Shown here piece by piece: positions 1 to 1,237 of a DNA stretch of 1,237 nt. Positions within the stretch are counted from its first letter, which is position 1. Each line of letters opens with the position of its first letter. The DNA lies in NCBI RefSeq assembly GCF_003334315.1, contig NZ_QOWR01000119.1; one strand, given 5' to 3'. A model generated the notes under the pieces. That model saw nothing but the letters and a program-made list of their open reading frames with translations. It was not told where the DNA came from and did no database searches. Origin of the DNA: Escherichia coli (GTDB lineage: Bacteria; Pseudomonadota; Gammaproteobacteria; Enterobacterales; Enterobacteriaceae). Position numbers and translations under genes: made by a program.

Positions 1-614
1 GCCTGCCGGGGCAGCAGTATGATGAGGAGTCCGGCCTGTATTACAACCGCCACCGCTATTATGACCCGCTGCAGGGGCGATATATCACTCAGGATCCGAT
101 TGGACTGAAGGGGGGATGGAACCTGTATGGATATCAATTGAATCCGATATCAGACATCGACCCCCTGGGTTTATCTATGTGGGAGGATGCAAAATCGGGG
201 GCATGTACTAATGGTCTTTGCGGCACACTATCCGCTATGATAGGTCCAGATAAATTTGATTCTATAGATAGCACCGCATATGACGCCTTAAATAAAATAA
301 ATAGCCAATCTATTTGCGAAGATAAAGAGTTCGCTGGTTTAATATGTAAGGATAATAGTGGCAGATATTTCTCAACAGCACCTAACCGAGGAGAAAGAAA
401 AGGATCATATCCATTCAATAGCCCTTGCCCTAATGGTACTGAGAAAGTATCAGCTTATCATACTCATGGTGCAGATAGTCATGGAGAATATTGGGACGAA
501 ATATTTTCAGGTAAAGATGAGAAAATAGTTAAAAGTAAAGATAACAATATCAAGTCATTTTATTTAGGTACGCCCAGTGGTAATTTTAAAGCAATAGATA
601 ACCACGGGAAGTAA
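1..614 (+). CDS. Rhs-family polymorphic toxin, 3' portion (5'-partial): end of the RHS repeat-associated core plus a variable C-terminal toxin domain
   Basis: Frame 3 is open from position 3 to the TAA at 612..614 with no upstream stop, so the gene starts outside the window. The translation begins [57 protein letters not shown], which is the hallmark C-terminal end of the Rhs core (YD repeat followed by the PxxxxDPxGL boundary motif). The start at 138 in the ORF track is an in-frame TTG (Leu), not a real start. Which Rhs paralog this is cannot be determined from the window. Confidence 0.93.
159..173 (+). other. DPLGL core/toxin demarcation motif of Rhs (predicted autoproteolytic release site region)
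   Basis: Codons gac-ccc-ctg-ggt-tta encode DPLGL at 159..173. A first DPIGL lies at 93..107. In Rhs proteins the conserved PxxxxDPxGL motif marks the junction between the conserved core and the variable C-terminal toxin. Confidence 0.85.
174..611 (+). other. Variable C-terminal (Rhs-CT) toxin domain, 146 aa, family unassigned
   Basis: This is the segment after DPLGL: [18 protein letters not shown]…[33 protein letters not shown]…NHGK. It is AT-rich (about one-third GC by eye, versus about 60% GC in the first 60 nt of the window). It contains 5 Cys and a His cluster (HTHGADSH). No HExxH, HNH or obvious deaminase motif was seen. Confidence 0.75.
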
Positions 615-627
615 ATAACAAACAGAA

Positions 628-632
628 AAGGA
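628..632 (+). promoter_or_regulatory. Shine-Dalgarno-like sequence (AAGGA) for the downstream ORF
   Basis: AAGGA at 628..632 lies 7 nt upstream of the ATG at 640, which is the first start codon after the in-frame stop at 616..618. Confidence 0.5.
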
Positions 633-639
633 TTACCTA

Positions 640-1023
640 ATGTCTGCAGAGTTCATGGTAATATGTAAAAAAATATTGTTTAGGAACTGTGTCATTGTAT
701 CTTTGTTTGTTTTTACATACAACACATGGGCGCAGTGTAATAATAATATTAAAATAATGCGCAAGTATGAAAGTGAAGGTAAATATACCGTTAGAAATTT
801 GGTTAAAAATAAAGCTATAGCATTGGAATTAGCTGAGATATATGTTAAGAATCGTTATGGACAGGATGCCGCAGAAGAAGAAAAACCATACGAAATCACT
901 GAGTTAACAACAAGTTGGGTTGTTGAAGGTACCATTCACTCAGACCAAATTGCTGGTGGGGTTTTTATTATAGAAATAGGCAAAAATGATGGGAGAATTC
1001 TGAATTTTGGCCACGGAAAATAA
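640..1023 (+). CDS. Putative cognate Rhs immunity protein (127 aa) with a signal-peptide-like or membrane-anchor N-terminus
   Basis: Complete ORF from ATG 640 to TAA 1021..1023, same strand and 25 bp downstream of the rhs stop, with the same AT-rich composition as the toxin domain. This is the canonical position of an rhsI immunity gene. The N-terminus (MSAEFMVICKKILFRNCVIVSLFVFTYNTWAQC) has basic residues followed by a hydrophobic stretch of about 11 residues and a possible signal peptidase I site (TWA|Q). The C-terminal half (…AEEEKPYEITELTTSWVVEGT…AGGVFIIEIGKNDGRILNF…) looks to me like the small NTF2-like/YbbC-type immunity proteins found beside E. coli rhs genes, but that is an unverified recollection. 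Confidence 0.7.
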   Translation: MSAEFMVICKKILFRNCVIVSLFVFTYNTWAQCNNNIKIMRKYESEGKYTVRNLVKNKAIALELAEIYVKNRYGQDAAEEEKPYEITELTTSWVVEGTIHSDQIAGGVFIIEIGKNDGRILNFGHGK

Positions 1024-1033
1024 GTATGTAAGG

Positions 1034-1056
1034 GGTGATGATGCCAACTTACTGAT
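1034..1056 (+). repeat. IS1 left terminal inverted repeat (IRL)
   Basis: GGTGATGATGCCAACTTACTGAT differs at one position from the canonical IRL I recall (GGTGATGCTGCCAACTTACTGAT). The exact start is ambiguous by 1-2 nt because of the preceding G run (1032..1035). Confidence 0.85.
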
Positions 1057-1088
1057 TTAGTGTATGATGGTGTTTTTGAGGTGCTCCA

Positions 1089-1237
1089 GTGGCTTCTGTT
1101 TCTATCAGCTGTCCCTCCTGTTCAGCTACTGACGGGGTGGTGCGTAACGGCAAAAGCACCGCCGGACATCAGCGCTATCTCTGCTCTCACTGCCGTAAAA
1201 CATGGCAACTGCAGTTCACTTACACCGCTTCTCAACC
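1089..1237 (+). CDS. insA: IS1 InsA (transposition repressor / N-terminal part of the InsAB' transposase), 3'-partial
   Basis: GTG at 1089 followed by codons for [48 protein letters not shown], the InsA zinc-finger region (CxxC…CxxC). The frame runs off the window end. Confidence 0.93.

Follow-up and report, generated by a model that had tools for sequence, protein, structure and literature searches.

Closest described systems

The C-terminal toxin domains of the Escherichia coli proteins RhsB and RhsD, named Tox-JAB-2 or DUF4329, have been paired with immunity proteins of Pfam family PF15631 (Imm-NTF2-2), a family then listed as present in E. coli only and described with no mention of a leader (Zhang et al., 2012, PMC3482391). 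The present work deals with a stretch of 1,237 nucleotides of E. coli DNA (contig NZ_QOWR01000119.1 of assembly GCF_003334315.1), referred to below as the window, which contains the end of rhsB and, at positions 640-1023, the gene of one such protein, YhhH. The yhhH gene, the PF15631 family and the toxin pairing are already known, having been published in 2012. The leader of YhhH and its implication were absent from the literature searched; automatic database annotation may show the leader. Our analysis suggests, from the export signal of YhhH, that the target of the toxin is the cell envelope and not RNA, and YhhH is probably a periplasmic inhibitor of a periplasm-acting, JAMM-type toxin.

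Comparison with the K-12 RhsB/YhhH pair is straightforward, as the window encodes the same protein, in the same order after rhsB and in the same Pfam family, and differs from the K-12 locus in that rhsB ends 18 codons early and that the insertion sequence IS1 follows yhhH. The other K-12 pair, RhsD/YbbC, is also close: YbbC is 47% identical to YhhH, and the C-terminal domain of RhsD is 52% identical to that of RhsB, but YbbC has a lipobox where YhhH has a signal peptidase I type site. In Bacteroidetes, Tox-JAB-1 is likewise an Rhs-borne JAB-fold toxin whose immunity protein, Imm65, has a signal peptide as well as a lipobox, although both the immunity family and the toxin clade differ from those of YhhH and Tox-JAB-2. 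Imm65 was reported as a lipoprotein, and the only one in that collection (Zhang et al., 2012, PMC3482391), whereas a lipobox is also found in YbbC of the Tox-JAB-2 system. Other periplasmic immunity proteins include a lipoprotein from a type VI secretion system (T6SS) effector-immunity complex of P. protegens (PDB 4kt3 chain B) and Cmi, the colicin M immunity protein (PDB 2xgl); neither shows any detectable sequence relationship with YhhH, and their toxins are known cell-wall enzymes, whereas the partner of YhhH is JAMM-like. The literature searched contained no functional work on YhhH, YbbC or RhsD, and no report of experimental neutralisation of the RhsB toxin by YhhH; papers on "YbbC" turned out to concern an unrelated B. 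subtilis protein and were discarded.

A probable export signal at the N-terminus of YhhH

The open reading frame (ORF) at 640-1023 on the plus strand, from ATG to TAA, encodes 127 amino acids and reads MSAEFMVICKKILFRNCVIVSLFVFTYNTWA followed, past the predicted cleavage point, by QC...SWVVEG...AGGVFIIEIGKNDGRILNFGHGK. Its product is 100% identical to E. coli K-12 YhhH (b3483) and matches PF15631 over residues 60-127 (E 3.4e-26, full model, 1-68/68), while searches of YhhH against NCBIfam and PHROGs gave no match and neither YhhH nor the toxin sequence matched any PDB chain at E<=10. The features of the gene are as follows.

627..632, plus strand: AAAGGA, the Shine-Dalgarno sequence for yhhH, spaced 7 nt from the ATG (pairing with the 3' end of the 16S rRNA, -5.4 kcal/mol)
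640..732, plus strand: predicted Sec signal peptide of YhhH, residues 1-31 (rule-based; conserved W30/A31; faster divergence of the leader)
733..1023, plus strand: mature YhhH, residues 32-127, and stop codon (linker/helix 32-57, then the Imm-NTF2-2 domain)
817-1020, plus strand: Imm-NTF2-2 domain of YhhH, residues 60-127

Signal peptides cleaved by signal peptidase I combine a positive n-region, an h-region of about 7-15 residues and, after a polar c-region, small neutral residues at positions -3 and -1. The original prediction, which regarded YhhH as exported or membrane-anchored, had read in its N-terminus a basic n-region (KK…R), a hydrophobic core of about 11 residues (CVIVSLFVFTY) and an AxA-type site after TWA, and each of these elements was indeed found. 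K10, K11 and R15, against E4, give a net charge of +2 before the core. CVIVSLFVFTY (residues 17-27) is the most hydrophobic 11-residue window of the protein (mean Kyte-Doolittle hydropathy 2.38), and the h-region, residues 16/17-27, is followed by a c-region N-T-W-A, with predicted cleavage after A31; T29-W30-A31, before Q32, satisfies the -3/-1 rule. The statement that the neighbouring AQC does not form a lipobox proved equally sound, as W-A-Q-C has Q at -1, which rules out a lipobox (signal peptidase II) reading for YhhH; the cysteine concerned, which stands at +2 of the predicted cleavage site, is absent from homologues P0067, P0069, P0072 and P0074. A Tat signal was also ruled out, the leader having no RR and K10, K11 and R15 as its sole basic residues.

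Leaders were called with a strict rule, in which 11 or more uncharged residues in a row, of mean hydropathy 2.0 or higher, have to start by residue 25, with a net positive n-region before them and a lipobox or a -3/-1 site after them. Calibrated on 46 annotated K-12 genes (1.00-1.05 Mb), this rule flagged none of the 23 cytoplasmic products and 12 of the 13 exported or lipoprotein ones, and YhhH passes it. It replaced a lenient rule (h-region of at least 8 residues) that had flagged 5 of the 23 cytoplasmic proteins. By this measure, the YhhH leader appears to be more than a chance occurrence.

The position of the start codon is consistent with translation of the whole leader. ATG640, with AAGGA 7 nt upstream, forms the best anti-Shine-Dalgarno duplex of the in-frame start candidates (-5.4 kcal/mol). 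ATG655 has a weaker match (-2.4 kcal/mol), and a start there would leave a 26-residue leader that still passes the strict rule. The internal ATG757, which had been put forward as an alternative to be excluded, has no Shine-Dalgarno sequence (+0.9 kcal/mol) and is not supported as a start; indeed, homologue P0072 has Ile at position 6 and Leu at position 40, so that the first Met alone is conserved as a start.

Leaders across the YbbC/YhhH family

Four full-length homologues, 65-72% identical to YhhH and including one from Salmonella, all retain the leader. Compared with YhhH, their residues 1-31 are 42-58% identical and their mature part 73-77% identical; their h-regions, 10-18 residues long, are still hydrophobic, W30-A31 is nearly invariant and position -3 is T or G. 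A leader that diverges faster than the mature part while remaining hydrophobic is the usual outcome of signal-peptide evolution. The K-12 paralogue YbbC (b0498), encoded after rhsD, starts with MKYSSIFSMLSFFILFAC and contains the lipobox ILFAC, and its N-terminus can be read as a lipoprotein signal.

In order to avoid circularity, remote relatives were sought with a profile built from the mature part of YhhH only, searched against 1.84 billion representatives. A word-indexed protein search gave close enterobacterial relatives only, whereas this exhaustive profile search reached remote ones, with 586 matches at E<=1e-3, in contrast with the earlier listing of the family as limited to E. coli. 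All 109 aligned family members match PF15631 (109/109). Leaders were counted in the 130 remote, apparently full-length representatives among the best 150 of the 586 matches. The strict rule found a leader in 90 of these 130 (69%), and the lenient rule in 102 (78%). Of the 90, 65 combine it with a -3/-1 site and 19 with a lipobox, the other 6 showing an anchor-like segment. Several unflagged representatives start inside a lipobox leader (MLLVSCSEGG and MFSCNN, for example), which suggests miscalled starts.

Altogether, the leader rule, the start backed by a Shine-Dalgarno sequence, the leaders of homologues, the lipobox of YbbC and the family-wide occurrence of leaders support the export or membrane anchoring of YhhH. 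Judged on these sequence data, its N-terminus is very probably a real export signal, and we consider it highly likely that YhhH is exported.

A predicted JAMM-type toxin encoded upstream

Megablast against complete E. coli genomes identified the window as the rhsB-yhhH locus, and RefSeq annotates the region as rhsB. The part of the window that precedes yhhH is organised as follows.

3..173, plus strand: 3' end of the rhsB core, ending in a PxxxxDPxGL motif (NCBIfam RHS_core and Rhs_assc_core, residues 1-57 of the 3-611 translation)
144-173, plus strand: PxxxxDPxGL motif, the border between core and toxin
174..614, plus strand: C-terminal toxin domain of RhsB (Tox-JAB-2 / Pfam DUF4329, E 1.3e-38), with its stop codon TAA at 612-614
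327-329 (E), 459-467 (H-T-H), 507-509 (S) and 516-518 (D), plus strand: JAMM-type motif of the toxin, E...HxH...S..D intact

The yhhH gene (from nt 640) lies directly downstream of the toxin, whose DUF4329 domain extends to nt 608. GC content falls from 58% in the Rhs core to about 30% in the toxin/immunity cassette, a drop of a kind common at Rhs tips. The rhsB-yhhH junction is present in 2709 of 5426 complete E. coli genomes, i.e. about half.

The AlphaFold2 model of the toxin has a JAMM/MPN fold (predicted local distance difference test, pLDDT, 86; predicted template modelling score, pTM, 0.83). Residues E53, H97-T-H99, S113 and D116 are invariant in seven diverse C-terminal toxin domains, together with C59 and C86, the latter two being kept even by the remotest of the tips compared. 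Six cysteines occupy aligned positions in intact C-terminal domains (K-12 RhsB, K-12 RhsD and that of locus L002). In toxin numbering these stand at residues 12, 17, 49, 59, 86 and 159 (window 204-428 plus the K-12 tail), with a CxxxxC pair near the start. A conserved and even set of cysteines is expected of a disulfide-bonded extracytoplasmic protein, and the conservation observed suggests disulfides or extra metal ligands.

The toxin gene of the window is shortened. Where it has the stop codon TAA (612-614), K-12 and strain MLI105 have GAA (Glu), and their RhsB is 18 codons longer (EITNRKGLPNVCRVHGNM) and overlaps the start of yhhH by 29 nt; the 61-nt stretch of the window had an exact match in none of the 2709 complete E. 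coli genomes carrying the junction. In RhsD and remote relatives, the lost 18-residue tail is conserved; it bears the sixth conserved cysteine and, judging from these alignments, the toxin of the window may be disabled.

The predicted fold of YhhH

The AlphaFold2 model of YhhH, computed from an alignment of 109 sequences (mean pLDDT 86.5), consists of a helix at residues 3-44, of lower pLDDT and apart from the rest, a linker, and a confident domain at residues 58-125, made of a long and a short helix together with four beta-strands. Foldseek returned no significant match to this model. In scores against it, a designed cystatin fold reached 8.1, VirB8/DotI 6-7, classical NTF2-like enzymes about 5, and the periplasmic immunity proteins 4kt3_B and Cmi 5.0-5.1. 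In the classical NTF2-like fold, a cone of three helices lies against a curved five- or six-stranded sheet. Weak Pfam PepSY matches were obtained for 8 of the 109 family members (best 3.4e-4), and none for YhhH itself.

The likeness to NTF2-type immunity folds noted in the original prediction agrees with the PF15631 (Imm-NTF2-2) match. The modelled structure appears nearer to protease-inhibitor domains of the PepSY/cystatin kind than to the classical NTF2 fold; on this model, the name "NTF2 fold" would be defensible only in a broad cystatin/NTF2-like sense. The nearest models to the YhhH domain seem to be extracytoplasmic protease-inhibitor modules. PepSY domains and metalloprotease propeptides (PF03413; YpeB, YpmB, FoxB; fungalysin and vibriolysin propeptides) nevertheless differ from YhhH, which has no PepSY match; the fold is small and common, so that the likeness falls short of established homology, and PepSY propeptides target M4 or M36 peptidases, whereas the proposed target of YhhH is a JAMM enzyme.

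Recurrence of the toxin/immunity pairing

Three leader-bearing relatives stand after DUF4329 tips. A full-length Rhs-DUF4329 protein is encoded ahead of P0113, whose gene overlaps its stop codon; the Rhs tip before P0131 shares the motifs GAC..G.C, SPCP and AYHTHG with that of the window; and P0072 comes after a C-terminal DUF4329 domain of 249 aa. DUF4329 toxins are thus repeatedly paired with PF15631 proteins predicted to be exported.

Other arrangements were also seen. At locus L005 (4001-5171), an orphan C-terminal piece of an Rhs protein comes after a PF15631 gene that bears a leader. The piece comprises a core end and a DPxGL motif together with a DUF4329 tip whose HTHG motif is followed by a longer insert, a layout typical of displaced Rhs tips. 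Leaderless PF15631 proteins were found as P0129 (L007 4001-4228), as P0138 (L019 299-526) and in about 10 similar representatives; they could be cytoplasmic orphan immunity genes or have another function. P0129 is one of a row of small ORFs on a contig in which no DUF4329 gene was called, and P0138 is on a 1.2-kb contig that is too short for its neighbours to be judged.

At one E. coli rhsB locus (L013 2500-3100, against window 120-730), unrelated sequence stands in place of the toxin domain and the first 31 immunity codons; it encodes a cysteine-rich C-terminal domain and a leader that reads MKYIIFLFRAIWLALSLLILFFSMHRLSLWA. The breakpoint falls exactly at the TGG GCG CAG (W-A-Q) codons, which yields a chimeric leader joined to mature YhhH (P0055). 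This alternative leader was considered as an independent conserved signal peptide and rejected, the alignment identifying a recombination chimera with a replaced toxin domain; it is consequently no evidence of selection. Protection by P0055 against the new toxin is unlikely.

Proposed mechanism and alternative explanations

From a mechanistic point of view, translation of YhhH would start at ATG640, and a Sec signal peptide of 31 residues would direct its export across the inner membrane. Signal peptidase I would probably cleave it after T-W-A and release a soluble periplasmic protein of about 96 residues, whose C-terminal 70 residues, a putative one-helix, four-strand PepSY/cystatin-like domain, would bind and block the toxin. 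The latter would be a JAMM/MPN-fold metallo-hydrolase with a complete E...HxH...S..D site, its likeliest chemistry being that of a peptidase or isopeptidase on an envelope substrate. Its most likely place of action would be the periplasm or envelope of the attacked cell, since the inhibitor would be located outside the cytoplasm. We infer a periplasmic toxin from an exported immunity protein, and the other evidence points in the same direction: a periplasm-acting hydrolase with a periplasmic inhibitor is the most economical reading, because the immunity partners of both JAB clades appear to be exported, the active site is of protease type, the cysteines are conserved and the fold is inhibitor-like.

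Several points weigh against this interpretation. The h-region of YhhH is at the short end (11 residues), with R15 and N16 breaking the preceding hydrophobic stretch, and the leader call comes from a home-made rule and comparison. The immunity function of YhhH is deduced from gene order only, and the pair may be inactive in the window, because the toxin is truncated by a premature stop. About 12 of the 130 remote representatives are leaderless, at about 75 aa, and the two checked have no upstream in-frame extension; cytoplasmic versions of the PF15631 domain hence exist. As for the toxin, JAB domains of toxins were predicted to be nucleases, the ubiquitin-tail tunnel not being conserved (Zhang et al., 2012, PMC3482391), and DUF4329 is called a ribonuclease (RNase) in later papers that cite Ma et al. 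(2017). In a Salmonella survey, moreover, Rhs-DUF4329 effectors were described with CdiI-type immunity proteins that have no signal peptide (PMC10469887).

The alternative that survives best is that of an uncleaved signal anchor, which would make YhhH an inner-membrane protein of type II, its periplasmic domain being tethered rather than soluble. The best 19-residue window (residues 7-25) has a mean hydropathy of 1.83, above the usual membrane-helix threshold of 1.6, the modelled helix 3-44 runs continuously through the proposed cleavage site, the leaders of 6 of the 130 remote relatives show no obvious -3/-1 site, and the paralogue YbbC would itself be lipid-tethered to the membrane. However, the uninterrupted hydrophobic core of 11 residues in YhhH, and of 10-18 in close homologues, is short for a membrane span, and a polar c-region with small -3/-1 residues (T/G-W-A) is conserved in these homologues. 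We thus regard this arrangement as improbable, though worth keeping in mind, and cleavage rather than anchoring of the leader as likely from the sequence features; the biological conclusion would be the same in either case, because an anchored domain would still face the periplasm.

A cytoplasmic YhhH, in which the N-terminus would be non-functional or translation would start at ATG757 to give a leaderless protein of 88 aa blocking a cytoplasmic nuclease or RNase toxin, is less probable still. It is favoured by the leaderless family members of about 75 aa, by the published nuclease/RNase prediction for Tox-JAB-2 and by those Salmonella DUF4329 effectors whose immunity proteins have no signal peptide (PMC10469887). 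Opposed to it are the poor standing of ATG757 (no Shine-Dalgarno sequence, Leu in P0072) and the 117 nt upstream of this codon, which are open and in which signal-peptide features are kept at 65-72% identity. The proportion of leaders in remote relatives (69% under the strict rule, 78% under the lenient one), against none of the 23 cytoplasmic controls with the strict rule, is likewise difficult to reconcile with it. The literature searched reported no RNase assay for DUF4329, a 2024 preprint on Shiga toxin-producing E. coli describes the activity and substrate of DUF4329 as still unknown, and viral Tox-JAB-2 versions have been described as secreted (Zhang et al., 2012, PMC3482391). A toxin acting as a cytoplasmic RNase or nuclease is unlikely.

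It is just as doubtful that YhhH is an exported PepSY-like helper or protease regulator travelling with Rhs C-terminal cassettes rather than an immunity protein: no immunity test of the pair appears in the literature searched and some family members lie away from any DUF4329 gene, but the position directly downstream of, or overlapping, DUF4329 domains is conserved in E. coli, Salmonella and remote metagenomic relatives and is the canonical Rhs toxin/immunity layout, and orphan copies in small-ORF arrays fit immunity islands.

The IS1 end downstream of yhhH

The remaining feature lies outside the toxin/immunity module.

1034..1237, plus strand: left end of IS1, 10 bp past the yhhH stop (aligned with K-12 IS1D and the K-12 sequence 3' of yhhH; IS1 also annotated in Megablast matches)

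The terminal repeat of this IS1 has one mismatch (GATGATGCC against GATGCTGCC), and K-12 has no IS1 at the site. The IS1 junction of the window was not found as one contiguous piece among the best matches in complete E. coli genomes. In strain MLI105 (L001), an IS1 lies upstream of a shortened yhhH gene of 109 aa.

Implications for Tox-JAB-2 toxins

An envelope target for Tox-JAB-2 is suggested by the predicted export of its immunity protein, the lipoprotein signal of the paralogue, the lipoprotein Imm65 in the sister clade and the six cysteines of the toxin. A broader proposal is more tentative, and we hold it at somewhat less than even chances: DUF4329/Tox-JAB-2 Rhs toxins would be disulfide-stabilised periplasmic JAMM metallo(iso)peptidases, and not RNases, while Imm-NTF2-2 immunity proteins would be exported PepSY-like protease inhibitors. 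Under this proposal, the candidate substrate would be an envelope component, such as peptidoglycan stem peptides or the Lpp-peptidoglycan link. The toxin encoded at a junction found in about half of complete E. coli genomes has been called an RNase in several papers without a test. The envelope-target reading turns the function of Tox-JAB-2 into an inexpensive question of periplasmic versus cytoplasmic expression and hints at where the substrate lies. If true, the proposed function would make this toxin the first JAMM enzyme with an extracytoplasmic antibacterial role.
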